A stretch of 64,000 bases of DNA from an uncultured bacterium. GTDB taxonomy: Bacteria > Muiribacteriota > UBA6191. The stretch is taken from assembly GCA_964539825.1 (NCBI GenBank), contig CAZIKF010000001.1, forward strand, positions 22,695-86,694, written 5' to 3'. Position 1 is the stretch's first letter; every line of letters begins with the position of its first letter. The notes under the pieces were generated by a model. It was not told the DNA's origin. It searched no databases and was given only the letters and a program-made list of their open reading frames with translations. The position numbers and the translations under genes are program-made. Of the stretch, positions 3,401-22,706 are shown in pieces.

Positions 3401-3594
3401 TTGGAAAAGGGACGCTGCAGAGAAATTCCCTGTATATCCAGGATATTTTGAACCAGGCTTCGCATCGTACCCGCCACTTCCTGTAACTGCGAAGATCGAT
3501 CAGGGTCTGCTGGTGGTGAATTTTGAAAAACCACTGCTCTGGTATGATTGAAAAGGAGGATAATCAGCAGAAACAAGGAAAGAAATTGCTTCAT
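484..3594 (-). CDS. large secreted protein (1036 aa) with a shared C-terminal Gly-rich/CFIATA(S/A)FG/HPxV..RFRDE/TM-helix module; paralog of the downstream 749-aa protein
   Basis: N-terminal signal peptide (MKQFLSLFLLIILLFNHTRA). Shares an internal block with the 3591..5840 protein (LILNVLLYDIEDG…YFAPFDQ versus NILLLDIQDGFEDKGSFVGAHFLPQDQ). C-terminal GGGGGGCFIATASFGSMEHPAVKSFCRFRDEFLLK…YYRNSPAVAQ… is followed by a hydrophobic helix. The central region holds a low-complexity (DAGAA)n stretch. Confidence 0.7.
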   Translation of the reverse strand: MKQFLSLFLLIILLFNHTRAVVFQNSPPADPDRSSQLQEVAGTMRSLVQNILDIQGISLQRPFSNQENSLILNVLLYDIEDGSPTPALSAKGYFAPFDQLRTRGISNINEVSNFGNLIFMDIGLLDPTQGLPTEAADKTQAKLYGNKFIFYQSFVQAFQFLLNFQAHNPYSVDSTKISTGDIVREYKWLDRSMGAFLGFRATRTSLELQGRIGIGTGLRVDNSTEFLFNTCGAVSDFRDICTNSPQSSFSSALQAIPFSVVRYLHPHNQLTRPTDDFIDNLPGLFHPDLGPPVVPAAGATASQVLDAVERDFTQQEMSTAMGFLTFLYIWEQLEANVRGAGDEFLVKALKSEIRSFSLEGNALSKNIFTSQTCDRNSLVPVDKICALDQALRQIQNTLPNQDERTFSDYFLDMGSAIFLDTSATSRTPLGLFEIRNLNLRDIDSITSVDDTFLSTGNRLGINFTRSIREPDQVGGQQEEEVVVDAGGADGGAADAGAADAGAADADAGGGDAGAADAGAGEVPVDEGADSESRLDLTTFSLGFVSLENRRNTADVSFPFLDQLDLEDGDVDSDPASVKSRRLDLGQATPRTGTTTYIVQKAQSGSISRTAAIVFQGLSQTSVSFQERRAAFSRSKIQRVGQDEQSLPAVRDPWSIYTSFKEALFQPQLTRRESSATILSTSGIKEWDIYEPLHEIRAKQPEDTLAFREYTTSFRTLDLRSNATLFQVIPRTAILKEKIEGVGGGQNFKIMLWVDQVFLPGSDSFTVPQTETVGLETPPDSQVQLDPETQVLTSLESQLQNQSVLDQVVRIPARVGKLLTVQNPFDVPLKILFFLTNGGSASQKFQISEGVATSTGKIIPIPLLPAKVFTRDSVMRAVERIDQENFVNPKGSKAFLILNKTDDDDDLILKLSRSTAVVAAAPFTVSGGGGGGCFIATASFGSMEHPAVKSFCRFRDEFLLKSALGREFVSFYYRNSPAVAQVLRSHPLLRTMVVIALTPVWWLLEGMWLKLILQFLLLILLLMATLQIYKSTNSQPS
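2030..2160. repeat. imperfect tandem nucleotide repeat (units around ccggcatcggc[g/a]gc) inside the 1036-aa CDS, encoding (D/G)-A-G-A-A repeats
   Basis: The plus-strand sequence 2041-2150 reads caccggcatcagctgcgcc / cccggcatcggcatcggcagc / cccggcatcggcggctccagcatcggcggcacc. The minus-strand translation is GGADGGAADAGAADAGAADADAGGGDAGAADAGAG. Confidence 0.6.
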
Positions 3595-5840
3595 CGTCCT
3601 CGCCCCCTAAGGACTCTCGCGAAAAAGTAAAATACCAGCAGAAATCCAGTGAAAAAGAGAGGATTCAAAAGTACCAGGGTAAATAGGGTGAGAGGTACCA
3701 ACAAGAGCTGAATAAAGAGCTTTAAAAAAGAGGACTCAGCAATGACCCCGGCCAGTGGCGGAGAAAATAGGTAATAGAGGTTTACAAAGTCCCTTCCTGA
3801 TTTAAATTTCATCAGTATCTCATCTCTAAATCTATTAAGAATCAGAACGATGGGGTGATTCTTAGTACCATAGGCCGCCGTGGCTACAAAACATCCTCCA
3901 GCGCCTCCCCCTGCAATTGCCTGTAGCTGCTCAGCGGTAAGTCCGGCACTAAGCGAACTCGCGCTCTGCCCTAAATCTGAAAATAATTCACTGTCAAATG
4001 CGCTCACAAATAAGGAAACCGTTACCGGTTGAGTATTTTCATTATAAAACGCAATGCGTGAACGGCTTCCTTCTCTTAGTATTACGACCTTCTCATCGGT
4101 TACTGGAACAAGGGAACTAAGGGATGCTAAGGATTCAGAACGGACTTCCAGCGTGATTTGAGTCGTGATGACGCTATCCTCAAGGCTCAGGCTCACTGGA
4201 AAATTAGATGAGTTCTCTATATATAGTTCAAAAATTCCTGCCTGAGAAAGAGTAATGAGGAGATTGGAAGTGGTGCTGCTGGTAGGAACCAGGGAAGTAT
4301 CAATGGGAAAAGGAGTAGCGGGCTCTACCTCTGTTTTTGATACTGTACTTTTAGCAGAATCACTCAGAAAGAGGGAAAAGGGAACCTCCTGGGTGAAGCG
4401 GGATTCAATTTGCTGAATTCTATAATTCCGTGAATCCTGCTCAAGGTTCAGCATAAATACCCATTTTTCCACTCCTGGAGGTAGGAACTCAAAGACCGAA
4501 TCATTTAGGATAATTGTCTCTACTCGGGGATTTCCCGCGGCATCCTTACGCAGAACCTTAACATCTGATTTCCCTATCCCTGAAGGAGCGGAAAAGTGAA
4601 TTTCCCGCTGGGTAGTGCCGGAGGGATTTTCAACTCTTACAATAGAAGGTTGGAAGGCCTGGACGAGGAGAACCGGAGGATCATTTGGATCATCCAACAG
4701 AGGGTATGCAAGAAGATCCAATAGCGGTACCCGGTAAGATTCCAGGTTATATTTTGTTTCTGTGGTAGGTAGCTGTAGAGCCAGAAAATAGTCTTTGTAA
4801 AGCTCTGAAAATGTACCCAGTGCTCGGGAACTCAAAGCCAAATCCAATCCTTCAATTCCATCCAATGGCTGATCCAATATTTCTCGAAACAGGCGGTCTC
4901 CATCACTGACCCTGGATCGAAAATCTCCATCCCCTCTTTGGAAGAGATAGGTAAAGAATAGATAGGAGAAACCACGAAAGTACTCGAAGTCTTTATTATC
5001 CGCCGGCTCCCTTGGGTTTTGAAAAATTCGTACTCTGTCTAGATCACTATCTTTAAAAGGAAATACTGCTCTCATTCGTGTTATGTCCTGCAAGTATGCA
5101 TTCACTTCTACGGGAGAAGCGGTTGGGGCATCTAGAATCTTGCTTGAACTTCTGGGAAAATTTACGGAATTCAAAAAGCGGTAAACGCTATACTGGGAAA
5201 TTCCTTCCTTTACCCAGTTTTCCTCGGTCGAATCTCTCTGGTACTGGATCAGGCGGGAGAGTACACGGGTTAACTCCATATAGGTCCGCCGTTTATTTAC
5301 TAAAGCATGTTGAGCTATTCCCAGGGTTCCCGGATTCAGGTCTACATAGAGAATATTCATGCCATTCCAACCACCGGCAGGGTCTTGATCCTGGGGAAGG
5401 AAGTGAGCTCCTACAAAGGACCCTTTATCTTCAAATCCATCTTGTATGTCTAATAAAAGAATATTGAGTCCAGGAGACTGAGAGCCCGTAACTTCTTGGA
5501 TTTCAAAGAGCGTACCTTCCATGGAAGGTACGAGAACAGATTTCATCCACTCAGCGAAATCATCAAGCACAGACTGACGATCCCCCTCTACAGAAACGGG
5601 ATTAAGGAGCGAATTCAAACCATTGGCGGTCGTACCCTCAAAGAGAGAGTTTTCTACCCAAACGCTTAAATCTAAACCAGGTCTTAGAGTGGCGGTTGCT
5701 CGTACCATTGCGGAGATGGAAAGAACCTGCCCCCGGTCAAAGTCAGGGACATCAAAATCCATTACGGTACCAGAGGGTGCTCCCATTAAAATGGAAAGGG
5801 AACAGCCCAGCACCAGGAATGCCAGTAACAACTTCTTCAT
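3591..5840 (-). CDS. large secreted protein / putative lipoprotein (749 aa), paralog of the upstream 1036-aa protein with the same C-terminal anchor-like module
   Basis: Signal peptide with a lipobox-like LVLGC. C-terminus …AGGGAGGCFVATAAYGTKNHPIVLILNRFRDEILMKFKSGRDFVNLYYLFSPPLAGVIAE… followed by a TM helix and a basic tail (ARVLRGRGR). 4-nt overlap with the upstream gene. Confidence 0.7.
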   Translation of the reverse strand: MKKLLLAFLVLGCSLSILMGAPSGTVMDFDVPDFDRGQVLSISAMVRATATLRPGLDLSVWVENSLFEGTTANGLNSLLNPVSVEGDRQSVLDDFAEWMKSVLVPSMEGTLFEIQEVTGSQSPGLNILLLDIQDGFEDKGSFVGAHFLPQDQDPAGGWNGMNILYVDLNPGTLGIAQHALVNKRRTYMELTRVLSRLIQYQRDSTEENWVKEGISQYSVYRFLNSVNFPRSSSKILDAPTASPVEVNAYLQDITRMRAVFPFKDSDLDRVRIFQNPREPADNKDFEYFRGFSYLFFTYLFQRGDGDFRSRVSDGDRLFREILDQPLDGIEGLDLALSSRALGTFSELYKDYFLALQLPTTETKYNLESYRVPLLDLLAYPLLDDPNDPPVLLVQAFQPSIVRVENPSGTTQREIHFSAPSGIGKSDVKVLRKDAAGNPRVETIILNDSVFEFLPPGVEKWVFMLNLEQDSRNYRIQQIESRFTQEVPFSLFLSDSAKSTVSKTEVEPATPFPIDTSLVPTSSTTSNLLITLSQAGIFELYIENSSNFPVSLSLEDSVITTQITLEVRSESLASLSSLVPVTDEKVVILREGSRSRIAFYNENTQPVTVSLFVSAFDSELFSDLGQSASSLSAGLTAEQLQAIAGGGAGGCFVATAAYGTKNHPIVLILNRFRDEILMKFKSGRDFVNLYYLFSPPLAGVIAESSFLKLFIQLLLVPLTLFTLVLLNPLFFTGFLLVFYFFARVLRGRGR

Positions 5841-6122: not shown

Positions 6123-6446
6123 TTATCCCAGACCGGGGATCTTCATCCCGCCAGTGACGGAAGACATTTGAGAGTCTTTGGCTTCCTGGGCTTTTCTCTG
6201 TGCATCCTGGATCGCCGCTAGAATTACATCTTCCAGCATCTCCACATCCTCTGGATCCACGGCTTCAGGCATTATCTTCAAGGAGATCAGTTCGAGCTTT
6301 CCATTCACTTCCGATTCCGCCATTCCGCCACCAGCGGAGCCAGAAAAGCTCATACCGTCGAGCTTCTCTTGCTCTTCAGCCATTTTTGACTGCATCTGCT
6401 GAGCTTGTTTCATCAGCTTGGCAAATTGATCATTCATCGATGGCAA
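6123..6446 (-). CDS. ybaB: nucleoid-associated protein YbaB/EbfC
   Basis: 107 aa with KLMKQAQQMQSKMAEEQEKL…EMLEDVILAAIQDA…GGMKIPGLG, which is typical of the YbaB/DUF149 family. Confidence 0.8.
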   Translation of the reverse strand: MPSMNDQFAKLMKQAQQMQSKMAEEQEKLDGMSFSGSAGGGMAESEVNGKLELISLKIMPEAVDPEDVEMLEDVILAAIQDAQRKAQEAKDSQMSSVTGGMKIPGLG

Positions 6447-6858
6447 TTCCTTTTAATCGCAGCCTTACCATGGATCGGGCTTTAGATTCTATCGCCCTTT
6501 CAGACTGTAAACTCCTCTTGGGAACCTGTGGATCTTTTCCAAGAAGTCTTTGATTAGCTCTAAACAATGCTTGCTGCGCACGCTCCACATCCACTTCTTC
6601 TGGCAGTTCAAAATAGTCCGGACACAGGGTCAGTTCATTCTCTACGAAATGTCCAATACCGTTAAAAACAACAAATTTCTCCGAGTTCTTATCATGGATA
6701 ATCTCACACATTCCAACCCCGAGCATAAATACCAGGGGGGCATGATTGGGATAAATCTCCATATACCCATCGGATGCATAAATGGAAACCTGAGTCGCTG
6801 TCATTTTTACCGGATCACGGCCCGGTGAGACAATTTTGATCGGGATTTCTTCGTCCAT
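6430..6858 (-). CDS. atpC: F1Fo ATP synthase epsilon subunit
   Basis: 142 aa lying immediately downstream of atpD. N-terminal beta-sandwich pattern (…KIVSPGRDPVKMTATQVSIYASDGYMEIYPNHAPLV…) and a C-terminal helical hairpin. Confidence 0.85.
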   Translation of the reverse strand: MDEEIPIKIVSPGRDPVKMTATQVSIYASDGYMEIYPNHAPLVFMLGVGMCEIIHDKNSEKFVVFNGIGHFVENELTLCPDYFELPEEVDVERAQQALFRANQRLLGKDPQVPKRSLQSERAIESKARSMVRLRLKGIAIDE

Positions 6859-6861
6859 GAA

Positions 6862-9170
<2,309 letters not shown>

Positions 9171-9181
9171 GGATTCTCACC

Positions 9182-10702
9182 TCAGGATGCCGTTGCACCA
9201 AAGCTGGACTTAAATTCCTTGATCAATTGATCTAAACGGGCTTTAAGTTCGTCATTGAGTTCTTTTTTCTCGCGAACTTCACTGAGAAAAGCCTCCTGAC
9301 TTGTCTCCATGTACTGATGAAATTCGGTCTCAAAACGTATCATTTCCGAAACAGGCAAATCATCCAGTGAGCCCGTGGTAACCGCATAGACAGACAGAAC
9401 CTGCATGACCACATCCATGGGTTCATATTGTCCTTGCTTGAGCATCTCAAGGGTTCGCTCTCCTCGTGCTAACTGTCTTTGGGTGGCATCATCCAGATCA
9501 GACCCAAATTGTGCGAAGGCCGCCAACTCGCGATACTGAGCCAAATCTAAGCGCAGGGAACCGGCAACCTTCTTCATCGCCTTGATCTGTGCGTCTCCAC
9601 CAACTCTAGATACGGATAATCCCACATCCACGGCTGGTCTCTGCCCGGAATTGAAAAGGTCTACATTGAGATAGATCTGACCATCAGTGATGGAAATCAC
9701 ATTGGTTGGAATATATGCTGAAACGTCCGAAGCCTGAGTCTCAATAATAGGAAGTGCTGTGATAGACCCGGCGCCCAGTTCGTCATTAAGCTTAACTGCA
9801 CGTTCTAGAAGCCTCGAATGCAAATAGAACACGTCTCCAGGATAAGCCTCACGTCCAGGAGGCCTTCTAAGAAGCAGAGATAGTTCCCGGTAAGCTACGG
9901 CATGTTTGGATAAATCATCGTAGATACACAGAACATCTTTCTTTTCTTCATACATGAATTCCTCACCCATGGTGACACCTGAATAGGGTGAGATGAATGT
10001 CAGGGGAGCTGGATCAGATCCTGCGGAAGCAACCACAATGGTATTTTCCATCGCACCTTCTTCCTCAAGCTTACGCACCACGTTAGCCACCGTGGACATC
10101 TTCTGACCTATGGCAACATAAATGGAAACTACACCGCTTCCCTTCTGATTGATGATGGTATCAATGGCGATTGCAGTCTTTCCGGACTGACGATCACCAA
10201 TGATGAGCTCTCTTTGACCTCGACCGATTGGGACCATGGAATCTATCGCTTTTAAACCTGTCTGCAGGGGAACTTTTACAGGTTGGCGGTCAATAATACC
10301 TGCCGCAATTCGCTCGATGGGGCGGGTTTTACTGGTGTTTATGGGCCCCTTACCATCAATGGGCTGACCCAGGGGATTTACCACTCGGCCTAAAAGCTCG
10401 GGACCTACTGGTACAGACATTACCCGACCGGTGGACTTTACCTGATCCCCTTCCTTGATTCGTTTAAAATCACCCATGAGAGCGACACCGACGGTACCCT
10501 CATCAAGGTTTAGAACCATTCCGTAGATTTCATTTGGGAACTCTACAAGCTCCCCGACCATGGCCTGATCAAGTCCATAAATCACGGCAATTCCATCACC
10601 TACACTGGTGACATAACCAACTTCCTTCTGGATCGAAACTTCTTCGAAGCTCTCAATCTGCTTCTTGATCAGTTTGGTAATTTCTTCCGATTTGATCTGC
10701 AT
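9182..10702 (-). CDS. atpA: F1Fo ATP synthase alpha subunit
   Basis: 506 aa with Walker [16 protein letters not shown] and overall alpha-subunit architecture. Confidence 0.97.
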
Positions 10703-10721: not shown

Positions 10722-11276
10722 TTACCAAATCCTCATTTTTTCTACGAGGTCTTCCAGCCGCTCTAGCTGGCCCTTTACACTATAATCAAAGATTTTGTTC
10801 TCTGTTTGGATCACAAAGCCACCCAGAAGTGTGGTGTCGTTCTCAAAACTCAGTTCTAATTTCTTGCCTACCATCTTTTCAATACCCTTTTTGAGCTTTT
10901 TCTGATCGGACTCTTGAAGATCGGCAGCCAAATAGACTCTTGCCTCTCCCCTCCCAAATCGGGAATCGGTTATCCGGACAAAATCAGTCAAAATTGAATT
11001 CAGCAGGTCAAGCCTCTGATTCTTTAGGAGAATTTTCAAAAAATTTCCTACAGATTTTGAGAGCTTCATCTTTTTGACAACTGCACCCAAGACTCCTATC
11101 TTGGCGGTCAATTGCTGAAATGGGCTCGAAAGCACTGATCTCAAATCCTCTGACTCATTGAGAAGCTCTTGAAACTCATTAATCTCTGCAACGGCCTGAT
11201 CTACTTCCTTTTCGCTTTGGAGACAAGAATCAAGCGCAGAAGAATACCTTCTGGCTATCACCATTTCATTTCCCAT
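10722..11276 (-). CDS. atpH: F1Fo ATP synthase delta (OSCP) subunit
   Basis: 184 aa sitting between atpF and atpA. N-terminal ARRYSSAL motif typical of delta. Confidence 0.8.
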
Positions 11277-11898
11277 CGCGGCCTCCGAGATTACTCACGG
11301 TATTTGAAGCATATTTTTTCAGAGATGTTTTCATTTTCTCCTCTGACAAACTGTCCACAAATATGCCGGTTAAACCGCTAAAGAATCGGCCCTTTAAATC
11401 ATCAAGACCTTCTCTGAAATGAGCGGCGGCATCAAGATCCACCTGACCTAAGATGCGCAGTTCCTGCTCCCTTGCGGATTCGATGACCTGTTCACGAATT
11501 TTGTGGGTCTGCTGAGTGGCTTCTTGAAGAATCCTGGTCTCTTCCTCACCGAGATTCTCAAGTTTCCCCTTAAGCTCCTCAACCTTTTGCTGAAATTCCC
11601 TGCGCTGGGATTCTTCCTGACTAAGCCTGGTTTCAATATCAGTAAGGTTCTCATCCACAGCTGGCAATAAGAGCTTTTTTATGACAAAGTTCCACAGCAA
11701 CAACATCAGAATAATGAAGTTGAGCCATTCCATCAGATACTGCCAGGTATGACCTCTCAAAAACTCCATGACCCCACCAGCCGTGGCTTCGCTTTCGGCC
11801 GCGTAAATAGGGGCTATCAGAAGAAAAAATAATCCTAGAAATATCCAAATTCCCGGAGTCAGATTATGCAGGAGTCTGTGCTTTGTACCATGCCTCAT
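11266..11898 (-). CDS. atpF: F1Fo ATP synthase b subunit
   Basis: 210 aa with a single N-terminal TM helix and then a long charged helix (EETRILQEATQQTHKIREQVIESAREQELRILG). Confidence 0.75.
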   Translation of the reverse strand: MRHGTKHRLLHNLTPGIWIFLGLFFLLIAPIYAAESEATAGGVMEFLRGHTWQYLMEWLNFIILMLLLWNFVIKKLLLPAVDENLTDIETRLSQEESQRREFQQKVEELKGKLENLGEEETRILQEATQQTHKIREQVIESAREQELRILGQVDLDAAAHFREGLDDLKGRFFSGLTGIFVDSLSEEKMKTSLKKYASNTVSNLGGRDGK

Positions 11899-12314
11899 GA
11901 TCCAAGAACCTTTCGATTCAGGACTTCCACGAGCTCGCCGCTGGACTTACCTAAATTCTGTTCCAATTCCTTGAGATTTTGCTCCACAACCTTGAATTTT
12001 TCTTGGGTCATTTCGACTGCCTTTGCTTCGGCATTTTCAAGGATTTTGGCTTTTTCTGCTTCCGCTTCATCTCGGGCCTTGCGCCTCAACTTCGACGCCT
12101 CGCCATGAATCCCCCCAAGCTTTGCGCGATAGGTGGACTCCAAGATTCCAATCTCACTCTTTTCGGCTGCGAATCCCTCTGCAAGTCCCGCGAAGCGAGC
12201 CTTACGTTCATCCATAACCCTAAATAAGGGTTTAAACAGAATTAAATCCAGCAGCCAATAGAGAACCAGAAAATTTAAAAGCTGGAAAAATAGGCTTATA
12301 TTAATATCAATCAT
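11895..12314 (-). CDS. atpF2: F1Fo ATP synthase b' subunit
   Basis: 139 aa with an N-terminal TM helix (FFQLLNFLVLYWLLDLILFKPL) and a charged coiled-coil tail. Sits in the position of a second b-type gene. Confidence 0.7.
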   Translation of the reverse strand: MIDINISLFFQLLNFLVLYWLLDLILFKPLFRVMDERKARFAGLAEGFAAEKSEIGILESTYRAKLGGIHGEASKLRRKARDEAEAEKAKILENAEAKAVEMTQEKFKVVEQNLKELEQNLGKSSGELVEVLNRKVLGS

Positions 12315-12628: not shown

Positions 12629-13387
12629 CTAATTCACTGTATACAGCAGTAATAAAGCCACTACCAGGGCAAACACACACACAGACTGAGCAACAGCCTG
12701 TCCTATTAACATTGTTCTGACGAGGGTGAATCGTAATGTTGGCTTCTTTGCTGTGCCGGCACATGATGATGCCGCAGGTAAACCACACCCAATTCCTGAG
12801 CCTATCGCACCAAGTCCAATCGATAATCCTGAACCTAATAGTGCCATTAATTTAGGCAGTCCCGGATAGACTGAGTAGTCGATGCTTAACAAGAGCAGCA
12901 GTGCAACCACAAGGCCGAAAACGGCCGGATTTCCCGCCACAGCGGAGCCGAGCAGGTGAACAAACTGAACATCACCCTGGGCACTTGGATTTCTTGATAT
13001 ACCCTCGACAGCTTTACTTCCCGTCAGCCCCATTCCAATTCCGCCGCCAATTGCGCCTAGACCCATGGCCAGCCCGCAGGATAATAGCCCCGCAGCCATA
13101 AACCAGAAGTTCTCCGTGGTAACCAAATAGGGAAGCGGTACAAAGAGTAAAAGGCAGGCAACCACCAGGGCAAAAATCGAAGCGGATTCTGTGACTGCCT
13201 GAGTTATGAGCATGGTTCTTAGAATCAATACATCCTGAACGGGTTGGCGCGCCATCCCCAAAACAGCAGAAGTAGCGGACCTAAAGGTACCCAATCCGGC
13301 GCCAATGGCACCAAAACCCATGCACAGACCAGCTGCAAGAAACTTAGCCCCCATCACGATCTCATTAGCATACTCAGAGAAGATCAT
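12629..13387 (-). CDS. fused triple-hairpin c-subunit-like proteolipid (252 aa, 6 predicted TM helices); only hairpin 1 retains the helix-2 carboxylate
   Basis: Three consecutive units, each with a GxGxGxG helix, a polar loop (ARQP / SRNP / AKKP) and a second helix. Hairpin 1 has AVTESASIFALVV, hairpin 2 has AVAGNPAVFGLVV, hairpin 3 has AVAQSVCVFALVV. Located between atpB and atpE. Confidence 0.75.
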   Translation of the reverse strand: MIFSEYANEIVMGAKFLAAGLCMGFGAIGAGLGTFRSATSAVLGMARQPVQDVLILRTMLITQAVTESASIFALVVACLLLFVPLPYLVTTENFWFMAAGLLSCGLAMGLGAIGGGIGMGLTGSKAVEGISRNPSAQGDVQFVHLLGSAVAGNPAVFGLVVALLLLLSIDYSVYPGLPKLMALLGSGLSIGLGAIGSGIGCGLPAASSCAGTAKKPTLRFTLVRTMLIGQAVAQSVCVFALVVALLLLYTVN

Positions 13388-14136: not shown

Positions 14137-14511
14137 CTAGTGGCTCCCCTTGTTTACTGCCGTACCCGCTAACCACAACAATTGTCTACCAGCAAAGGAA
14201 AACTGGAGTGTGAAGAGACCCGCAAGTAGTGCATATGGATGAAACCTTTGAAGAGACAGGGCTAGACCGACCACAACAGCCATCAAAAGTAAACGAAAGC
14301 CAAAACCTCCAAGCATTCGTTTGCTGGACCCGGAAAGCCTGAGGGACTCGCAGTCTCGAACCATCAAATGCAGATTTCCCAGGCTAATCATTCCACCAAA
14401 AAGGAAACTAAGGTTCATGTGAGGATTTTTAAAAGTCCCAAAAAGAATTAACTGCAAAACAAAGTGGGCCCAGATTAGATCCCTTGTCATATCAGTCTTT
14501 ACGTTTTCCAT
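14137..14511 (-). CDS. atpI: AtpI-like small membrane protein of the ATP synthase operon
   Basis: 124 aa with about 4 hydrophobic segments, positioned directly upstream of atpB. Confidence 0.5.
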   Translation of the reverse strand: MENVKTDMTRDLIWAHFVLQLILFGTFKNPHMNLSFLFGGMISLGNLHLMVRDCESLRLSGSSKRMLGGFGFRLLLMAVVVGLALSLQRFHPYALLAGLFTLQFSFAGRQLLWLAGTAVNKGSH

Positions 14512-14731
14512 TCTTTTTTCGACTTCCTCGGGCTGTTATGAGTCTATATATCGAAAACCCTCCAGCCACTCCTCCCAGCAAACCAAGACAGATGGATAAG
14601 ATTGGACTGCTTCCCATCCACTGGTCCAGATAGTATCCGCTCAAAATCCCCACACCCAAGCAGGTGGCAAAGACCAGGCCAACTTGTGGTATCAGGGCCA
14701 TTAATTTTAGCGCCTGGAAAAAGTGGGTCAT
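14492..14731 (-). CDS. atpZ: AtpZ/AtpR-like small membrane protein (ATP synthase gene-1 family)
   Basis: 79 aa with two TM helices and a basic C-terminal tail (RGSRKKNGKRKD). First gene of the operon. Confidence 0.5.
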   Translation of the reverse strand: MTHFFQALKLMALIPQVGLVFATCLGVGILSGYYLDQWMGSSPILSICLGLLGGVAGGFSIYRLITARGSRKKNGKRKD

Positions 14732-14852: not shown

Positions 14853-15893
14853 ATGAGCCAAGTAAATCTGTCTATAAAACTTCTCAAGGAAGTCTTCATC
14901 GGTATGGGAGGGGGAGACCTCATTCAGGATCAAGAAGCCCTTGCCCAGCGAGAGGTACAGGGAGCCCAGACAATGCTGCGCAGTCTTGACAGCGACCTGG
15001 ATAATTTTTGTTCCCAAATTCTTGGTGCGGGAATTCAGACAGTAGAGGAATTCAAGAACCGTTTGAGAACTTTGAATTTCGAGACCATGGAAAGAAACCG
15101 GGAAAAGCTGATTGAACAAATCCATGAGAGCGAAGGTCTGCTTAACTCCTCCAAAGCACAGCACAAGTGGATAGATTCTCTTACCCAATCAGTCTTTAGT
15201 CCAGAGAAAATTGATGGATTTTGGAAGGCCCAGGGATTTCAGCTCTACGCGAACCATGACCTTGATCTATCTGGGCTTGAGAGTTCACTCATTGACTATT
15301 TCGCAGTAAGCAGGAACAAGAAGAGGGCTTATTTTATTCTTTTGGAATTGAACCGAAACGCACCCGAATCCAATGTCTTGAAACTGTACTACTACCTAAA
15401 AAATTCACGCAGCTTGTGGAACTTCGAAAACCTTGTCATTCTCCAGATTTTCTCCCCCAAGTACCTCATCGAGAAAAAGGGGAAATCTCTGGCCTTAGCC
15501 AGGGAAATGGCCCTATTTCTTGGTCATGAATTTAGCGGGGACTATGTATTTGGAGATAAGCGAGTGAAAGTCCGCTATGAGTCCGAGGTATTCAGCCCCG
15601 GTCAATACGAAGTTTTTTCAGTTTTCTGGAATCTCATGTCAGACGAGTCAGATTCAGAATCTCGTTACGAAGTACTGTGTGAAAAGCTAGCTCAAAATTC
15701 AAAGTTCCTGGAGTTATGTAAACAATATGTCCGCAGACAGGCAGCTCAAAATCTCCAAATCGAAGAACCCTTCACCAGACTTGCCGGTTCGGAAGGCACT
15801 TCTTTGGACATACACCAGATCTTTTGCAATTGGTGCTGGGAAATTGTTGGCTTTATTCGGGATAAATTCCAGCATTATGAGGGCAGGAATTAG
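14853..15893 (+). CDS. hypothetical protein (346 aa)
   Basis: Long ORF transcribed divergently from the atp operon. No recognisable motif. Confidence 0.5.
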   Translation: MSQVNLSIKLLKEVFIGMGGGDLIQDQEALAQREVQGAQTMLRSLDSDLDNFCSQILGAGIQTVEEFKNRLRTLNFETMERNREKLIEQIHESEGLLNSSKAQHKWIDSLTQSVFSPEKIDGFWKAQGFQLYANHDLDLSGLESSLIDYFAVSRNKKRAYFILLELNRNAPESNVLKLYYYLKNSRSLWNFENLVILQIFSPKYLIEKKGKSLALAREMALFLGHEFSGDYVFGDKRVKVRYESEVFSPGQYEVFSVFWNLMSDESDSESRYEVLCEKLAQNSKFLELCKQYVRRQAAQNLQIEEPFTRLAGSEGTSLDIHQIFCNWCWEIVGFIRDKFQHYEGRN

Positions 15894-15908: not shown

Positions 15909-17618
15909 TTAACGGGAGCGGAAATTGCGCTCATCCTTCAAGTTTTCCAAGATGATCTTTTTCAAGGCAGGGGATTTTTCAATTTCTTCCCTGGTTACTT
16001 GTTTTACAGTCGGCACAGGGGATGTAGCAGAAGAAGAGGAAGGCGGAGTCTCAACAGGGGGTTGTAAATCCGGCGCGAGTGTCGAAGAGACCGGCTCTTT
16101 GGGAATGACAGGAACCATGACGGTGGGTCTTTTTGATAGCGCTTCCAGGGTATTTGCCTGCCGGTCCATTAACTCTGCTATTCTGGAAAGACGATCTTCC
16201 AGTCTATGAATTCTGGCCAGATTTTTTTCGTTACTCTCCTGTAATAAACTACTGATTTCCGGTTCAAGAATTTTCTGCCTACCCCTCACCTCAGGCTCTT
16301 TGGTCATTTTATCAATGGGCATCACATACACAATTCCCGATGGAGTTTTGGTCCCTGCGCTTTGAGCCTTTTCCTGCAACATCCGTGGAATCTCAGCCAA
16401 TCCAGGCAAATCCAGCCCAGCCCTCATCGGAATGACATACACATGCTCGGCGGGGGTCTCCTGCTTATCCTGCTTTTGAATCATCGCTCCAGACTTCCCC
16501 ACTTGTGCCTTATCAGGAGTAGCAATCGACTGCTTCCTATCAGGCTCCGAGGATCCCGATCTTAATCCGTGAATCATTTCTCTTGATCTTCGTATCTCAT
16601 CGAGAATCTCCTTTTCACGACGAGCTACCTGCTCATAGTATTTTTCTTCAAACCGAATATCTGCCTCAAGATCGAGAGCATCTGAACCCTTTTCACTGAT
16701 TTTCAGTTTGGCTGTATCCAGTTGATTGCGAACCGCGTGCAATGATGCTAACTTCGCGCGAATCTGCCTCACTCTGGATCTCTTCATATGAATCGATATG
16801 AGGTAGTTAATTCTATTGTTGTTCTTATCAATCAATCCAATCCGTCGCTGAACATATTTGAAACTGAGATCCCGACTCTTTTCATGGATCTCCTTTCGAC
16901 GCTCTTCCAAGAATTCGATTTTCTTGTGAATAGACTTCATTTTAGGGTATTCCAATCTCTCGAAGTCCCTCTTTAGTACCTTCTTTTTACGCATAAGGCG
17001 ACGAATCTTTTCTTTGCGCTTTAGAATGAAGTCATCATTGTATCTTGAGGTAGGATCCTCTAAATGAAGATCAATCTCGTCATATAGTCCCTGAATTTTC
17101 GAGCCCACGGAACTTATATCCGTGACTTTGACATTTTTTTCCTTCTCAAGGTCGTCCTTAAGTTTTCTTACCTTTACATGAATGTCTCTGACCTCAGCTC
17201 TTCTCAAAGTCAAAAAGCTCTGAATCTGAGCCTCCAGATCTTTATTGTCGTCCAGTATTTCCAGAATTCCAGGAACACGTTTAATTTCATGAATAATCTC
17301 TTGTTCCTGTGCTGCTATGGCCTGCTTAATATCGGTTAGCTGGCCAACATCTCCCCCTTTTGAGATACTGGTCTTGTGTTTCCAAAAAATAGGTGCGGTA
17401 CTTCGTAATAGATCGGTAACATTCAATATTTCAGGAACTTCTTGAACTGTTGGCCGCTCTTCGTAGGACATTCCCTGGTAGGGATCATTTGCCGTGAAAT
17501 CTTTAGGATCGGGAACTTCATAGACGGTACCCTGGTTAGCGGCAGCTATGGAAAGAAAAAAACCAAGAAAAAGGGATAACGACAAGAGGAAAGTTCTTTT
17601 CCTCAATTCAGAACTCAT
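15909..17618 (-). CDS. secreted coiled-coil-rich hypothetical protein (start reassigned to the internal Met)
   Basis: An ATG at 17618 is preceded by GGAGAAGGAGAG (RBS) and gives the signal peptide MSSELRKRTFLLSLSLFLGFFLSIAAANQ. The track start at 17681 lacks an RBS. The body is Lys/Glu/Arg-rich heptad-like sequence with a C-terminal Pro/Ser-rich segment. Confidence 0.6.
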   Translation of the reverse strand: MSSELRKRTFLLSLSLFLGFFLSIAAANQGTVYEVPDPKDFTANDPYQGMSYEERPTVQEVPEILNVTDLLRSTAPIFWKHKTSISKGGDVGQLTDIKQAIAAQEQEIIHEIKRVPGILEILDDNKDLEAQIQSFLTLRRAEVRDIHVKVRKLKDDLEKEKNVKVTDISSVGSKIQGLYDEIDLHLEDPTSRYNDDFILKRKEKIRRLMRKKKVLKRDFERLEYPKMKSIHKKIEFLEERRKEIHEKSRDLSFKYVQRRIGLIDKNNNRINYLISIHMKRSRVRQIRAKLASLHAVRNQLDTAKLKISEKGSDALDLEADIRFEEKYYEQVARREKEILDEIRRSREMIHGLRSGSSEPDRKQSIATPDKAQVGKSGAMIQKQDKQETPAEHVYVIPMRAGLDLPGLAEIPRMLQEKAQSAGTKTPSGIVYVMPIDKMTKEPEVRGRQKILEPEISSLLQESNEKNLARIHRLEDRLSRIAELMDRQANTLEALSKRPTVMVPVIPKEPVSSTLAPDLQPPVETPPSSSSATSPVPTVKQVTREEIEKSPALKKIILENLKDERNFRSR

Positions 17619-17762
17619 CGCTCTCCTTCTCCATGACAAACGACACAAAACCGAAAGGTTGGCAGCCAAATCCGGTAACATTTAATCCGGGCGTTCCATC
17701 TCCTCTTAACCTGTCGGCAAGAGGGGGCAGGAATGTAATACGACCAGGAAACCGAAAAGGCA

Positions 17763-20519
17763 GTGCCCATCAAAACTCTCACGGAGTATAATGATCCCAT
17801 GACCACCGAGCCCACACTTAATCTCCAAAAAATTCAGACTCTGCTGCATTCTTCTCATATGGATGAACCCATTAAAGCTCTAAAGGAATTAGAGGCATTT
17901 CCCTTAAAAGGGGAAGTTTTGGAAACCTATATCCATATTTTAGATCATGCTCTTTGGAAAGTTCGTAAATTGGCAGCCAGGCGACTAGAACAGGAAATTG
18001 GCATTACTTTCCCGCATGTAGCCAAGTGTATTCTGGATGAAACCGCTGATCGCCGCTACTGGGCTATGCATATTCTTCCCGCCGCGGGTAAAAGAGCTCT
18101 CAAGCCTTTAATGGAAGCAGTCGAGCGCCTGGAACATCCTGAAAACCTCTTCGCATTAAAGGCTCTCTCTAAATTAAAAGAGCCTTCCAGCATCCCCTTT
18201 GCGCTTGAAAAGCTCAAAGACCCAATCTGGTCTGTCCGTAAAGAGGCTTCCGAACTTTTGTGGAATTTAGGATCCCGTTCGATTCAGCCCATGAAAAAGG
18301 CCATTCAGAGTGGAACTGACGATCAGCGATATTGGTGCTTCAAAATTTTGGGACGCATTGGTGGAACCTCTGTTCTCAAAACACTCATGGAAATTCTTGT
18401 CTCTAAGGATTATGACGATAAGGTTCGTTCCTATGCACTGAGTGGAATTCAGGAAGTTCGCGCACCTCAATCGATCCCAATCTTTATCAATACCCTGGAC
18501 TCTGATCTGTGGGTCCTCCGAGCCCAGGCATCGAAAGCATTAATGGAGGCCGGTAGAGATCCCCATCGCGAACTGGTTTTAGCCATGAAGAAAGGTTCTC
18601 GTTCCGTTCGCTACTGGGGAGCGATTGTACTCAAGGAAATAGTGGAGGAAAAGCATACCGCACTCATCGAGCAATTACTAAAAACTCCAGATCTGGATCT
18701 CAGGTTCCACGCAATCTCCATCCTGGGTAAAATCCGCTCCACCTCCGCCGTGGAATTACTCGCGGGAATCCTGACAGATTCCCAGTGGTACTTACGGAAG
18801 CATGCGACAGATGTCCTGATTTCCATGGGACCGGTTTGTGTCGCGCCCCTTGCCACAAGAATTGAAGAGGGCTCTGAAGAAAAGCTGTACTGGATATGTC
18901 AGATTCTGGGGGAGGTGGGACAGCCCACTTGTTTCCATGCTCTTGAAAAACTTGTAAGAACCGGCTCTAAGGAAGTACGTCTATATGCCCTTGAGGCCAT
19001 TGCCTGCATTGGTGGAGATCGAGCGGTTTCTCTATTAATTGAAGCATTCGATAACCAGTCCTGGGTGGTCCGCTCCAGGGCACATGAGTATTTACTTCAG
19101 ATTGGTCCCCCCGCATTTTTACAGCTATTTGAAGGCTTATTAAATCCCGTAGATTCCATGCGTTTCTGGTGTGAAACAACTATTGAGGAATCTGAATATT
19201 ATGGTGCCCGCACCTTGATGAAATTTCTTGGTTCAGGGACCGAGCGTGAATCCCAGGACATTTTAAATCAACTCTCACAGCTAACAGATTCGGTTTTGAT
19301 GGAGCTTTATCAAAACTACTCCCTGAAACCGCAGGATGTCTTGGACAAGCTGTCTATCGCTCAGTCCCTCAATACATCCGCTTTGACCCATTATTCTTCT
19401 GAAAGCGCCAGTCTCGAATTCAGTTTCTTCCAAAAATCTGAGTACCCTTATGAGCAGGTTCAGCGCTTTAAAGAAATTCTTAAAGAGTCTGCGGAATTAG
19501 GAGCAACTCAGCTTCATTTACGCATCGGAACACCTCCCATGGCGCGGGTCGACGGAGTTTTATGTAAATGCGGGTCCAGGACCCTTACTAATCAAGATAT
19601 TCAGGAATTCCTCTCCCCCTATCTAAGTTCTCCCCAGGTCCAGGAATTTCAGCGCGAAGGAACCCTTGGAGTAGACATCCCTTATCAGGAACGCGGGCGA
19701 TTTAAAGCACATATTTTCCGGCAATCCAGGGGAGTTGAGTGTGTGCTGCATTATTCGACAAATACAATTCCTGATTTCCAATCTCTAAATCTTCCCTCAG
19801 ATTTTTTAAGCCATATTGCTAAACTTCCGCAGGGATTGATCCTAATTAGCGGTCCGAACCAGTCTGGCAAGAGTACTTGCTGCATCAGCCTCTTAAGTTA
19901 CATCAACCGCAATTTTGTGAAGAATATTATGACTGTGGAAGATCGCATAGAATACCCATTGCAGAGTGCGAAATCCCTCGTGTCACAAAAGGAGATGGGT
20001 AATGATCTTCACAGTCTGAGCAGTGCTGTTGAATCTCTCTCCAGGGAGGACCCTGATGTAGCTTATCTTGCTCGGATTCCTGAATCTCGCTCCCTTGAAA
20101 CACTGCTGCAGCTTGCCTGTTCCAGAAGCCTTGTGATCGTGGAATGTAATGCGAATTCATCTCGTGAAGCAATTGAGAAGATCTTATATCTATTCCCCCC
20201 GAAACTCTTAAAGGTGTATGAGAGACTCTTCCAGTCAGCGCTCCAGGCTTCGGTACACATCCGTCTTCTCAATAACGCACAAGAATCGGGCCTGGTTCCC
20301 GGGGTTGAGTACTTTCTGAATAATTCCAAAATTTCAGAGTGCCTTTCCATTGAATCTCTTGAAAAGCTCTCACGCGTTTTAAGAAGTTCAAGACAAGAAA
20401 CCAGTGTTTCTCTCGATGATTACCTTATGGGGCTCGCTTCAGAAAAGAAAATTACCTATCAGGAAGCAGTCCGTTTCATGGAGGACAAATCACGGGTGTC
20501 TGTGGATCAGATCTGGTGA
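17763..20519 (+). CDS. HEAT-repeat (PBS-lyase-like) domain fused to a PilT/PilU-family secretion-ATPase domain with degenerate Asp-box and His-box
   Basis: The N-terminal ~520 aa hold repeated …VR..A..AL..IG……L…L.D… units. The C-terminal ~400 aa align to PilT: GATQLHLRIGTPPMARVDGVL, Walker A GLILISGPNQSGKST, TVEDRIEYPL (PilT has EDPIE), SREDPDVAYLARIPE (PilT has DPDIILVGEMRD), and VIVECNANSS (PilT His box is FGTLHT). Confidence 0.75.
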   Translation: MPIKTLTEYNDPMTTEPTLNLQKIQTLLHSSHMDEPIKALKELEAFPLKGEVLETYIHILDHALWKVRKLAARRLEQEIGITFPHVAKCILDETADRRYWAMHILPAAGKRALKPLMEAVERLEHPENLFALKALSKLKEPSSIPFALEKLKDPIWSVRKEASELLWNLGSRSIQPMKKAIQSGTDDQRYWCFKILGRIGGTSVLKTLMEILVSKDYDDKVRSYALSGIQEVRAPQSIPIFINTLDSDLWVLRAQASKALMEAGRDPHRELVLAMKKGSRSVRYWGAIVLKEIVEEKHTALIEQLLKTPDLDLRFHAISILGKIRSTSAVELLAGILTDSQWYLRKHATDVLISMGPVCVAPLATRIEEGSEEKLYWICQILGEVGQPTCFHALEKLVRTGSKEVRLYALEAIACIGGDRAVSLLIEAFDNQSWVVRSRAHEYLLQIGPPAFLQLFEGLLNPVDSMRFWCETTIEESEYYGARTLMKFLGSGTERESQDILNQLSQLTDSVLMELYQNYSLKPQDVLDKLSIAQSLNTSALTHYSSESASLEFSFFQKSEYPYEQVQRFKEILKESAELGATQLHLRIGTPPMARVDGVLCKCGSRTLTNQDIQEFLSPYLSSPQVQEFQREGTLGVDIPYQERGRFKAHIFRQSRGVECVLHYSTNTIPDFQSLNLPSDFLSHIAKLPQGLILISGPNQSGKSTCCISLLSYINRNFVKNIMTVEDRIEYPLQSAKSLVSQKEMGNDLHSLSSAVESLSREDPDVAYLARIPESRSLETLLQLACSRSLVIVECNANSSREAIEKILYLFPPKLLKVYERLFQSALQASVHIRLLNNAQESGLVPGVEYFLNNSKISECLSIESLEKLSRVLRSSRQETSVSLDDYLMGLASEKKITYQEAVRFMEDKSRVSVDQIW

Positions 20520-20600: not shown

Positions 20601-22706
20601 TTATTCGGTATAGAAGGAAGCTGCTTCCGGTAATGCCAGCTCTTCCCATACTGTCCGTATGAGGTATTTTTCCTGGGGACTTAAAGGAACCAGATTTCTC
20701 CCCTGAACCCACTGGTTTGCGTCACGAAATTTTCGTGCTTGGATGTAAAGAATCAGTTGGTACCATGGATTTTTATCCGAAGGATTAATTCTCTCAGCTG
20801 GGTCTGAGATTAAGATCCCAGGGAATTCCCTGAACACCCTTTCTTTAAATAGCTGCTGCAAAAACGTCCCTGAATTTCGAATTTCCCAGTGGGAATTCTT
20901 GCTAAATTCCTCAAAAGACTTCAGGGCACTGCCCTGGAGTTCTCCACTCACCAGCAAAGTTTCAAAAAAACGAAAATCCTCGCCGAGCGAATCCCATTCT
21001 CGAAGTTCACGAATAATTCTGTGAGCTACCCCATCCATACCCTGGTGATAAAACTGAAGAGCAAAACCTTGCCATAGAGTTAAGTCTAGAGGGCGAGCTT
21101 CCCGGGCTAGAACATCATCCACCTGAAGAAAAACCAACTGTTGTCTGAGTTTGTCGAGGTCAACTGTTGACTTGCCTTCAATAGTACCTAAAAATTGCGA
21201 GATCGAGAGACTTGCTGCAAAATTTTTCTTATTGAGGTTTTTAACCCTGGGTAAAAGTCCTGAATAAACAGCTAAACCATCTTCAAGAAAAAGAATTTTT
21301 GCAGCAGGAAAAGTTTTTGAAAATGGAGCTAGAAGAGTTTTAAGGTCCCTGGCCTTATAGGATTTTGCGGTAAAGATCAGAATGCCTCCCGAAAGGCGAT
21401 CAGATAAAAACCGAATCCACTCCGCATATTCTCCTGCCTTCAATATTCTATGAAAGCTCATCGCCAGATAGTTTGGTTTCTTTTTTGACAGTAGATGTCT
21501 GACCTTTGTGCGCGAAATGGAGCCCCTCAATTCTGCCAGATAAAAAGTAGGGTTGAGCTTTTCAGTGCTCGAGCTTTTTTCTAAATCAAACACTCGAACC
21601 GCGTCCCCTTGATCCGCGTCATCCAGTAAATTGAAAAGAATCCAGGGTTTCTCCCCATAGACATCCTCAAAGTGGTCGCTCAAGGAAACTTTGCGGTAAA
21701 GAGTGATTTCACCATTTTGAACTCGGGACAATTGATGAAATTGAAGAAGTTTAGGTTGAGTGCCAGCAACAGACTTCATCAACGCAGCTTCATTAGGAAG
21801 ATGGGTAAGCCCGTAATAAAACACAAAACCAACGAGGCCCATCGCGATCCACGAATGCCCGGAGCCATAAAATATTAGCAAACGAGCGGAAAGAAAAAAG
21901 TGCCACAAAACGATTCTTTGATTGGGACTTTGCAAGTCAAAAAGAGTGCATAGGACCAAAAAAATCAACACGGAAAGAGAAGTTGAAATTCCAGACCTTC
22001 TAATCGGAGGGGAAGGGACCACAAGGCAAACAATCATTGAGCCCACTACCAGGGCACTCATGGCAGGGCTGGGATAAAGTAGAAAAAAGGAGCCCAGTAA
22101 AAATGCATGGAAGAAGGTCCAATCAAAAACCCTACGACTCATTCGCTCCAACCAAAACTTTCTTGGCTTTCCCTCTAAGAACAGAAGAAAAAACGCGCTA
22201 CATCCGGCAAGAACCTCAGGTCGCACACCGGCTGAGAGAAAAACTAAGCCTAATACAACACCAATCCATATTTCCCTCTCTATGGGCCTGCACCGCTTTT
22301 GATTCCTGACAATTTGGGTTTGGCCAAGAAGAAACAAAAAGCCGGCCAGTAAGAGGAACCCGGATAAGACCCAGCCTGTAGTGAAAACCCCCGATATGGC
22401 TAAAAATAAAGCCATCAGGGTGCACAAGGGAAAACCGGGGGACGGCAAAAAACGTGAGTTCCTTAGAGATACATAGAGAAAAGCCCATGGAATCCAGCTG
22501 AAAAAAAGAACTACAAAAAGTATGAAAATGTGGGAACGATGGTATGCCTCCAATAGATAGAACTGTGTCTGTAACAGGTCTAACAGATGAACAAAAAGAA
22601 ACTTCGGAAATCCTGCTAACACAAGAATTAGAGATCCGAGAAAGAAAACTCTACCTACCTGATCGTAAAGGGGATCCTTTTGAAGGGTCCGCTGTACGAA
22701 TAGCAC
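20601..22706 (-). CDS. polytopic membrane protein with a large C-terminal soluble domain (701 aa), function unknown
   Basis: The N-terminal ~350 aa hold 9 or more hydrophobic segments. The C-terminal half is hydrophilic with no recognised motif. Confidence 0.55.
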   Translation of the reverse strand: MLFVQRTLQKDPLYDQVGRVFFLGSLILVLAGFPKFLFVHLLDLLQTQFYLLEAYHRSHIFILFVVLFFSWIPWAFLYVSLRNSRFLPSPGFPLCTLMALFLAISGVFTTGWVLSGFLLLAGFLFLLGQTQIVRNQKRCRPIEREIWIGVVLGLVFLSAGVRPEVLAGCSAFFLLFLEGKPRKFWLERMSRRVFDWTFFHAFLLGSFFLLYPSPAMSALVVGSMIVCLVVPSPPIRRSGISTSLSVLIFLVLCTLFDLQSPNQRIVLWHFFLSARLLIFYGSGHSWIAMGLVGFVFYYGLTHLPNEAALMKSVAGTQPKLLQFHQLSRVQNGEITLYRKVSLSDHFEDVYGEKPWILFNLLDDADQGDAVRVFDLEKSSSTEKLNPTFYLAELRGSISRTKVRHLLSKKKPNYLAMSFHRILKAGEYAEWIRFLSDRLSGGILIFTAKSYKARDLKTLLAPFSKTFPAAKILFLEDGLAVYSGLLPRVKNLNKKNFAASLSISQFLGTIEGKSTVDLDKLRQQLVFLQVDDVLAREARPLDLTLWQGFALQFYHQGMDGVAHRIIRELREWDSLGEDFRFFETLLVSGELQGSALKSFEEFSKNSHWEIRNSGTFLQQLFKERVFREFPGILISDPAERINPSDKNPWYQLILYIQARKFRDANQWVQGRNLVPLSPQEKYLIRTVWEELALPEAASFYTE

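Follow-up and report, generated by a model that had tools for sequence, protein, structure and literature searches.

A triple-hairpin c subunit in the F-type ATP synthase operon of an uncultured bacterium and its probable role in a mixed rotor ring

The stretch of DNA analysed here (64,000 nucleotides of contig CAZIKF010000001.1 from an uncultured bacterium, called the window below) carries on its minus strand a canonical and complete F-type ATP synthase operon, atpZ-I-B-c3-c-b'-b-delta-alpha-gamma-beta-epsilon. Between the gene for the a subunit (atpB) and that for an ordinary single-hairpin c subunit of 88 amino acids (aa), hereafter c88, lies an open reading frame (ORF) of 252 aa, hereafter c3, which encodes three c-subunit hairpins in tandem. 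The first of these hairpins has kept the ion-binding glutamate; the other two, which we call silent, have not. F-type c subunits are single hairpins of about 70-90 aa, a description that c3 with its three hairpins does not fit.

The operon and the architecture of c3

The genes of the operon are packed closely (Table 1). The stop codon of atpB and the start codon of c3 overlap as ATGA (13384-13387), a GAGGAGG Shine-Dalgarno sequence lies upstream of c3, and c88 begins 21 nucleotides after c3 with a Shine-Dalgarno sequence of its own, AAGGAGG. The product of atpB carries the stator arginine, Arg180, in the motif SFRLFGN (codon 13594-13596). At the other end of the operon, the epsilon subunit is matched by the NCBIfam models for F0F1 epsilon (best E 1.5e-17), all of them under their curated cut-offs, as with TIGR01216 (52.8 bits against 67.25).

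Table 1. Genes of the ATP synthase operon, with the parts of c3, in window coordinates. L001 is the locus of a 95%-identical c3 orthologue.
Feature	Position	Strand	Evidence or remark
atpZ-like small membrane protein (ATPase_gene1)	14492..14731	minus	PF09527
atpI	14137..14511	minus	PF03899
atpB, a subunit, 249 aa	13384..14133	minus	PF00119, E 5.5e-46
c3, triple-hairpin c subunit	12629..13387	minus	252 aa; TAG stop 12629-12631
c3 hairpin 1, residues 1-84	13136..13387	minus	Glu67 (codon 13187-13189) and Ser68 kept
c3 linker 1, residues 85-93, PLPYLVTTE	13109..13135	minus	connects hairpin 1 (outer helix) with hairpin 2 (inner helix)
c3 hairpin 2, residues 94-168	12884..13108	minus	silent: Gly152 (codon 12932-12934), then Asn153 and Pro154
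c3 linker 2, residues 169-176, IDYSVYPG	12860..12883	minus	non-helical in the AlphaFold2 model
c3 hairpin 3, residues 177-252	12632..12859	minus	silent: Gln234 (codon 12686-12688); Ser235 kept
c88, single-hairpin c subunit, 88 aa	12341..12607	minus	PF00137; Na+ motif
b' subunit	11895..12314	minus	PF00430
b subunit	11266..11898	minus	PF00430
delta (OSCP) subunit	10722..11276	minus	ORF; L001 orthologue matches PF00213
alpha subunit	9182..10702	minus	ORF; L001 orthologue matches PF00006
gamma subunit	8283..9170	minus	ORF; L001 orthologue matches PF00231
beta subunit	6862..8265	minus	ORF; L001 orthologue matches PF00006
epsilon subunit	6430..6858	minus	L001 orthologue matches PF02823

Residues such as Thr34, Glu67, Gly152 and Gln234 are given in the numbering of c3 itself, and the ion-site positions 32, 63, 65, 66, 67 and 70 in that of a single c subunit, in which Thr34 of c3 is position 32. 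The c-subunit profile PF00137 matches c3 in three separate stretches (E 6.6e-41; 138.8 bits against the Pfam cut-off of 24), the best of which spans all 60 profile positions (1-60), and a custom hidden Markov model of the hairpin finds full-length domains at residues 12-83, 97-168 and 180-250 with 97-108 bits apiece. The AlphaFold2 model of the protein (mean predicted local distance difference test score, pLDDT, 93.1; predicted TM-score, pTM, 0.85) consists of six long helices paired into three hairpins (residues 3-47/49-82, 94-132/134-167 and 177-214/216-249), with non-helical segments at residues 83-93 and 168-176. Pairwise identity is 35-41% among the hairpins and 39-48% between each of them and c88. 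Inner helices bear GxGxGxG motifs, the polar loops read ARQP, SRNP and AKKP (all of the R/K-x-P type), and the second helices contain the strings QAVTESAS, SAVAGNPAV and QAVAQSV. When c3 is aligned with c88 and the c subunits of Ilyobacter tartaricus and Escherichia coli, the carboxylate position is occupied by Glu67, Gly152 and Gln234, so that the helix-2 carboxylate of PF00137 hairpins is present in hairpin 1 only.

An earlier note on this DNA, made from its letters alone, had placed such an ORF between atpB and the 88-aa atpE, had read it as three tandem c hairpins with just these glycine motifs, loops and helix-2 strings, and had assigned the surviving glutamate to hairpin 1. All of this holds, and hairpins 2 and 3 do align to the c-subunit family. 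For hairpin 2, quoted there as AGNPAV, the loss of the glutamate stands and the replacement is amended: the aligned residue is glycine, with asparagine at the next position.

Among NCBIfam models, whose scores for c3 are sums over the three hairpins, those for F-type c subunits are passed (NF009999, 137.7 against 124; NF005608, 132.6 against 128; TIGR01260, 96.8 against 44), whereas the V-type K model NF004913 (62 against 211) and alt_F1F0_F0_C (88 against 131) both remain under their cut-offs. By these profile comparisons the hairpins of c3 are of the F-type c family and not of the V-type K or N-ATPase c families. The closest solved structure is c1 of Acetobacterium woodii (PDB 4BEM), a fused double hairpin that the earlier note had already named as a precedent: chain 4bem_J is the best sequence match in the PDB (E 3.2e-21, aligned to hairpins 2-3) and also the best Foldseek match of the model (E 8e-9, TM-score 0.80 normalised to the target, root-mean-square deviation 1.6 Å), with V-type proteolipids next. 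No solved chain among the Foldseek matches spans all six helices, the query-normalised TM-score being at most 0.58. The transfer of a V/A-type proteolipid or an N-ATPase c subunit into the operon was considered as well, and is ruled out by the NCBIfam scores and the PDB ranking.

The fusion is genuine, not three genes with lost stop codons. Three independent assemblies, with contigs of different samples from ENA, Logan and JGI, contain a 95%-identical c3 within the same operon, and further three-hairpin orthologues occur in GTDB genomes (L005-L008 and L018). Such a recurrence of the architecture, in close homologues as well as in these assemblies, goes far beyond chance. In an alignment of 11 family sequences, the residues F82, V83, T90, N93 and D170 in and around the linkers are invariant, with Y171 and S172 nearly so; Glu67, G152, N153 and P154 are likewise invariant, as are the Gly-rich inner-helix motifs and the R/K-x-P loops. 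Between c3 and its orthologue in L001, the proportion of changed nonsynonymous sites (pN) is 0.05 and that of synonymous sites (pS) 0.74, a saturated value, which gives a pN/pS of about 0.07. For hairpin 2 the values are 0.043 and 0.83, and for hairpin 3 pN is 0.027; the silent hairpins are constrained as much as hairpin 1. The identity of c3 to its L001 counterpart (95%) exceeds that of alpha (88%), a (87%), delta (63%) and b (58%). The three segments show no DNA-level repeat and no tandem array, just similarities of 17-23 nucleotides at the Gly and ALVVA motifs, and the triplication must therefore be old. Recent tandem duplication and repeat-driven mis-assembly are excluded on the same grounds.

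Several other features of the window deserve mention. Five large ORFs of 346-1036 aa (484-3594, 3591-5840, 14853-15893, 15909-17681 and 20601-22706) have no Pfam match at E <= 1e-5, and three of them border the ATP synthase operon directly. A plus-strand gene at 17763-20519 encodes a 918-aa protein in which HEAT repeats are fused to a type II/IV secretion ATPase (T2SSE) domain; a homologue occupies the matching place in L001-L003 (1-972), several genes away from the ATP synthase operon. Further along, on the minus strand, a giant flagellin-like ORF of 2048 aa (42306-48452), whose sole Pfam match is Flagellin_N at residues 6-128, adjoins a 799-aa FlgK homologue (48473-50872). An LpxC deacetylase and a FabA/FabZ-like dehydratase domain share one 426-aa protein (53852-55132, minus strand), followed by LpxD at 55163-56182. 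Neither rRNA nor tRNA genes nor any other Rfam match were found within the window.

A family of c subunits with three, four and five hairpins

A homologue search with c3 returned nine proteins of 249-252 aa, 69-99% identical and of the same architecture, together with more than 100 of about 324 and about 404 aa. A census of 120 proteins identified the latter as four- and five-hairpin forms. Read hairpin by hairpin, the residues at the carboxylate position are EGQ in the three-hairpin form (9 proteins), EQQE (23), EQQQ (16), EQEE (9) or ESGG (2) in the four-hairpin form, and EQQQQ (36) or EQQQE (23) in the five-hairpin form. The glutamate of hairpin 1 is kept by 119 proteins out of 120; only P0054, which is N-terminally truncated and starts in the middle of a hairpin, departs from this. 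An exhaustive search of 50%-identity representatives yielded 46 clusters at E <= 1e-30 and 242 at E <= 1e-10, and across GTDB species genomes 416 stretches were found to encode a relative of c3.

Gene layouts were counted at 83 loci besides the window, namely the best 80 of these 416 stretches and three contig loci. A four-hairpin gene followed by a single-hairpin gene (4 + 1) is the layout of 50 loci, 3 + 1 that of 19, and 5 + 1 that of six (L013, L050, L051, L059, L060 and L078); two loci are 4 + 1 + 1, and the remaining six are otherwise arranged or incomplete, three of them 1 + 2 and three (L004, L034 and L064) with only a multi-hairpin gene called. A c gene of three, four or five hairpins thus lies directly upstream of a single-hairpin c gene at 75 of the 83 loci, which parallels the order atpE1, then atpE2/E3, of A. 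woodii and Clostridium aceticum. In L016, L023 and L036, from Desulfobacterales/Deltaproteobacteria, the order is reversed: a single-hairpin c gene precedes a two-hairpin one, and in two of these loci both hairpins of the latter bear Glu. This arrangement may reflect another state of fusion or a gene that was called in two parts.

The closest named relatives of the window are metagenome-assembled genomes (MAGs) labelled Candidatus Cloacimonadota, with c3 68-70% and alpha 75% identical. Carriers of the family include MAGs of Candidatus Cloacimonadota, Planctomycetota/Brocadiaceae and Verrucomicrobiota and many Desulfobacterales, as well as two cultured strains, Desulfosarcina widdelii PP31 and D. 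cetonica JCM 12296, both with the four-hairpin form. In D. widdelii PP31 (L014, NZ_AP021875.1, 5302-8460) the genes form an Fo-only cluster of a, c4, c, b' and b; with neither alpha nor delta directly after it, the Fo and F1 genes appear to be split. Within the clade of the window the hairpins are orthologous by position (H1-H1 60-89%, H2-H2 55-76%, H3-H3 51-66% identity), whereas the identities to individual hairpins of the four- and five-hairpin proteins of Desulfobacterales are too weak to decide on positional orthology. Two proteins of the window's own clade, P0010 and P0030 (333-334 aa), have a four-hairpin form with the pattern E-S-G-G, in which a further hairpin of the type of hairpin 2 has been inserted and glycine stands at the carboxylate position even in the last hairpin. 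Chains with very many hairpins also occur: P0168 (1139 aa), P0203 (968 aa), P0254 (631 aa) and P0243 (524 aa) are c-like, with 4-8 matched stretches.

On the comparisons above, c3 belongs, as one branch, to a wide family of predicted multi-hairpin F-type c subunits that are paired with a single-hairpin c subunit of Na+ motif. The earlier note had regarded a triplicated c subunit in an F-type operon as unusual. The triplication is upheld; c3 is no singleton, however, given the breadth of the family. Its members are annotated simply as "ATP synthase F0 subunit C". Searches of the accessible full-text literature turned up no account of an F-type c subunit that exceeds two hairpins, earlier mention elsewhere being possible; a recent paper on Desulfatiglandales notes only "two to four atpE copies". 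Judged by sequence, what seems new here is the presence of three or more hairpins in an F-type c subunit, as an extension of the known F/V-hybrid design of c1.

Ion sites and the proposed rotor

The partner c88 has the full two-carboxylate Na+ motif (Glu32, Val63, Glu65, Ser66, Thr67 and Tyr70). In the solved site of this kind, Na+ is held by Glu32 and Glu65 of one hairpin and by Val63 and Ser66 of its neighbour, with Tyr70 and Ser66 hydrogen-bonded to Glu65 (PMC3692424). The closest PDB matches of c88 are 4bem_J and c2 of A. woodii and the c subunit of Fusobacterium nucleatum (3zk1, E 7.5e-24). With the last, c88 shares GPGIGEG...QAV(A/S)ESTGIY, including every ligand of the solved site. The F. 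nucleatum c11 ring is homomeric, built of single hairpins, and no multi-hairpin subunit is reported for it, whereas c88 is encoded beside c3. The signature E..V-x-E-S-T..Y is found in 81 of 82 single-hairpin c genes of the related loci. We infer from these residues that the enzyme uses Na+ rather than H+.

Hairpin 1 of c3 has a different site, with Thr34 at position 32 (codon 13286-13288), Ala at 67 and Phe at 70, and of the Na+ motif residues of c88 it retains E65 and S66 only. Threonine at position 32 is common to the whole clade of the window, and other clades have Glu there. Hairpin 3 of c3 has Val at position 67 and Phe at 70, where its relatives P0006, P0007, P0009 and L005-L007 have Thr and Tyr.

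Such variation can be used to ask how neighbouring hairpins are related. Internal neighbouring hairpins were compared in 200 multi-hairpin proteins with 105 distinct signatures. Tyr70 occurs in hairpin i in 69 cases, and in all 69 the next hairpin (i+1) bears Glu65; in the 540 cases in which hairpin i+1 lacks Glu, Tyr70 is absent from hairpin i throughout. Tyr70 is unrelated to the Glu of its own hairpin (odds ratio about 1), and Thr/Ser67 is coupled to the Glu of the next hairpin in the same direction as Tyr70. The first hairpins of the family carry Ala67/Phe70, in keeping with the silent hairpin that comes next, and the last hairpins keep S-T-Y in 183 of the 200 proteins, so that a Glu-bearing hairpin should come next in the ring. 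The c1 subunit of A. woodii obeys the same rule: Phe70 of its hairpin 1 precedes a Gln hairpin, and Tyr70 of its hairpin 2 precedes the Glu-bearing c2/3. The direction of site sharing is here read from natural variation, and the rule fits ion sites built across adjacent hairpins, as in solved c-rings. It provides strong, if indirect, evidence that the hairpins of c3 would pack as c-ring neighbours.

In line with what the earlier note had proposed, we consider it probable, at roughly two in three (0.68), that c3 is a rotor subunit of a hetero-oligomeric Na+ ring, in which it would supply two consecutive silent positions and lower the ion/ATP ratio. The co-assembly of c3 with c88, the copy number and the ring size are what we infer from the genes and their ion-site residues. 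As an extended version of the F/V-hybrid design of A. woodii c1, c3 would fill three adjacent ring positions with one ion-carrying carboxylate, Glu67, and the remaining positions would be taken by copies of c88 with a complete Na+ site each. The hairpins of Gly152 and Gln234 would pass the stator Arg180 without ion uptake or release. Because they would exchange no ion there, each c3 copy would cost two ions per turn, and the ions per turn would equal the number of hairpins minus two per copy. A ring of 11 hairpins with one c3 copy would then translocate 9 Na+ per 3 ATP (3.0); the corresponding ratio is 3.67 in a plain c11 ring and 3.33 in the A. woodii enzyme. The likely purpose would be to gain more ATP from each ion in energy-limited anaerobes, whose phosphorylation potentials are low, a setting that V-type c subunits with fewer sites have been argued to suit, and enzymes with V-type c subunits make ATP at 90-150 mV (PMC9171764). 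Alternatively, the design may help an enzyme that works in the reverse direction to build up a steeper gradient.

A number of points weigh against such a ring. According to Mitome 2004, as cited in PMC8809890, a single E56Q substitution in an engineered fused c10 ring of Bacillus PS3 abolishes ATP synthesis, and by analogy two consecutive silent sites would not be trivially tolerated. The last hairpin in the window's subclade reads Q-S-V..F instead of the usual Q-S-T..Y, which is unusual before a Glu-bearing hairpin, and Thr32 of hairpin 1 suggests that the ion affinity of its site may differ from that of the c88 sites; between them, Val67/Phe70 of hairpin 3 and Thr32 of hairpin 1 may weaken one or two sites. 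The coupling counts ignore shared ancestry and so take no account of phylogeny. Pfam annotation of the 64-kb window revealed no second ATPase and no Rnf or Nqr Na+ pump. Finally, the coupling rule is met equally well if copies of c3 follow each other, as hairpin 1 always bears Glu and the last hairpin of one copy would then precede hairpin 1 of another.

This last point leads to the strongest of the alternatives, unlikely as we hold it to be, in which c3 would form a homo-oligomeric ring of its own (for example four copies, with 12 hairpins and 4 sites) that takes turns with a rotor made of c88 alone, giving two enzyme forms of very different ion/ATP ratio under different conditions. The separate Shine-Dalgarno sequences of the two genes would suit this arrangement. 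However, the genes are co-transcribed neighbours in 75 of the 83 loci and nothing points to their being regulated separately, the sole solved precedent is a mixed ring of one c1 and nine c2/3, and one site per three hairpins corresponds to about 1.3 ions per ATP, which is thermodynamically implausible for synthesis at 90-150 mV (PMC9171764).

Slightly less credible is a position of c3 outside the working rotor, whether as a scaffold or "ruler" in assembly, which would nucleate the c88 ring or set its size, or in some other membrane role. The invariance of its Gly-rich motifs, of its F1-facing R/K-x-P loops and of Glu67 argues against this, as do the coupling of neighbouring hairpins, which mirrors real ion sites, a conservation above that of the catalytic alpha subunit, and the fact that A. 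woodii c1 sits in the ring. What gives the idea some weight is that two of the three c3 sites are dead, that hairpin 1 has an atypical threonine at position 32, and that Thr67 and Tyr70 have been lost from the last hairpin in the window's subclade.

A hybrid ring as proposed, yet in an H+-coupled or promiscuous enzyme, is similarly improbable and comes just behind. Hairpin 1 of c3 lacks Glu/Gln32, Thr67 and Tyr70, and ion selectivity of c-rings is set by subtle features together with ion concentrations (PMC3692424); against this, c88 would be far more numerous in the ring and has every Na+ ligand of the F. nucleatum protein, and its signature is nearly universal among the related loci. That c3 is an artefact, either three tandem atpE genes joined by stop-removing errors (the refutation that the earlier note had itself envisaged) or a decaying pseudogene, has nothing in its favour and a negligible probability, and is ruled out by the recurrence of the 251-252-aa fusion in the same operon in independent assemblies and GTDB genomes, by linkers conserved at the protein level, by a frame that is intact despite saturated synonymous sites, and by the lack of a DNA repeat able to cause mis-assembly.

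The mixed ring of c3 and c88, which we prefer, bears on how much ATP a cell can gain from its membrane gradient. That gain is given by the ion/ATP ratio, which is normally set by the number of single-hairpin c subunits. To our knowledge, the A. woodii ring with its one silent site is the only F-type escape from this rule. The idea of the silent site is taken further in c3, with two such sites consecutively in one polypeptide encoded in a textbook operon, and further still in its relatives, with three or four. More tentatively, and at somewhat less than even odds, there may exist a whole class of bacterial F-type Na+ ATP synthases, as yet undescribed, in which a polypeptide of 3-5 hairpins gives 2-4 consecutive non-ion-binding positions. 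If this is true, c3 would be the three-hairpin representative of the class, and the silent block in an 11-hairpin ring would span about 65 to 130 degrees. Part of each turn, near a full catalytic step of 120 degrees, would pass without ion transfer, the ion/ATP ratio would lie between 3.0 and about 2.3, which equals or falls below the lowest value known for F-type enzymes, and elastic energy would have to be stored beyond what current models and the E56Q result in PS3 allow. Given the loss of synthesis in that mutant, c3 offers a naturally occurring case in which to test how long arcs that carry no ion are crossed by a rotor. It also suggests that anaerobes short of energy, among them sulfate reducers and relatives of anammox bacteria, commonly tune their bioenergetic "gearing", and estimates of ATP yield for the carrier organisms would change. 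The four-hairpin form in the cultured Desulfosarcina strains makes the question open to direct testing.

Comparison with known systems

Proteolipids with fused hairpins are familiar from V-type and archaeal enzymes. V-type proteolipids (NtpK of Enterococcus hirae, 2BL2, and the eukaryotic c, c' and c'') have duplicated hairpins with one carboxylate per two, and they match c3 with E values of about 1e-4 to 1e-5, against 3e-21 for A. woodii c1. In their rings silent sites alternate with active ones, whereas the silent sites of c3 are consecutive. The A-type proteolipid of Methanocaldococcus jannaschii has three hairpins with two carboxylates and forms a ring of its own; c3 retains one site of three and is accompanied by a co-encoded single-hairpin c subunit. 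Subunits of 1, 2, 3 or 13 hairpins are found in archaeal A-type enzymes, and like c3 the A1AO proteolipids can have a triplicated hairpin in one chain and fewer carboxylates than hairpins (PMC9171764). However, these archaeal proteins are encoded in A-type operons, whereas c3 is found in an F-type operon and has F-type scores.

The four- and five-hairpin c subunits of Desulfobacterales are closer. As in c3, their hairpin 1 bears Glu and a single-hairpin c gene of Na+ motif follows downstream; their internal hairpins are silent (Q-T-P-F) and the last is usually S-T-Y. They differ from c3 in having more hairpins, at about 40-47% identity, and in having Glu at position 32 of hairpin 1 and Gln at the silent sites, where c3 has Thr at position 32 and Gly152 in hairpin 2.

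The closest counterpart remains the two-hairpin c1 that F-type enzymes of C. aceticum and A. woodii contain. The A. woodii ring is composed of nine single-hairpin subunits and one V-type subunit, c1(c2/3)9 (PMC9171764). Like c3, c1 of A. woodii is a multi-hairpin c subunit encoded in an F-type operon just upstream of one or more single-hairpin c genes of Na+ motif; its hairpin 1 keeps Glu and has Phe at 70, and its later hairpin has Gln instead of Glu. It reads Q..VAETS..F and then Q..VAQTT..Y, with Gln65 in the last hairpin. The two proteins differ in size, c1 having two hairpins, or four transmembrane helices, and about 18 kDa, compared with three hairpins and six helices in c3. At position 32 of hairpin 1 stands Gln in c1 and Thr in c3, and the partner subunits also differ, with Q..ET in A. 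woodii and the two-carboxylate motif E32/E65 in c88. The hosts are far apart as well, A. woodii belonging to the Firmicutes and the closest named genomes of c3 being the MAGs labelled Candidatus Cloacimonadota. While c1 has one silent site, Gln-Thr-Thr, c3 has two in succession, one of them Gly-Asn-Pro. In short, c3 has the same end hairpins as A. woodii c1, with one extra silent hairpin between them.

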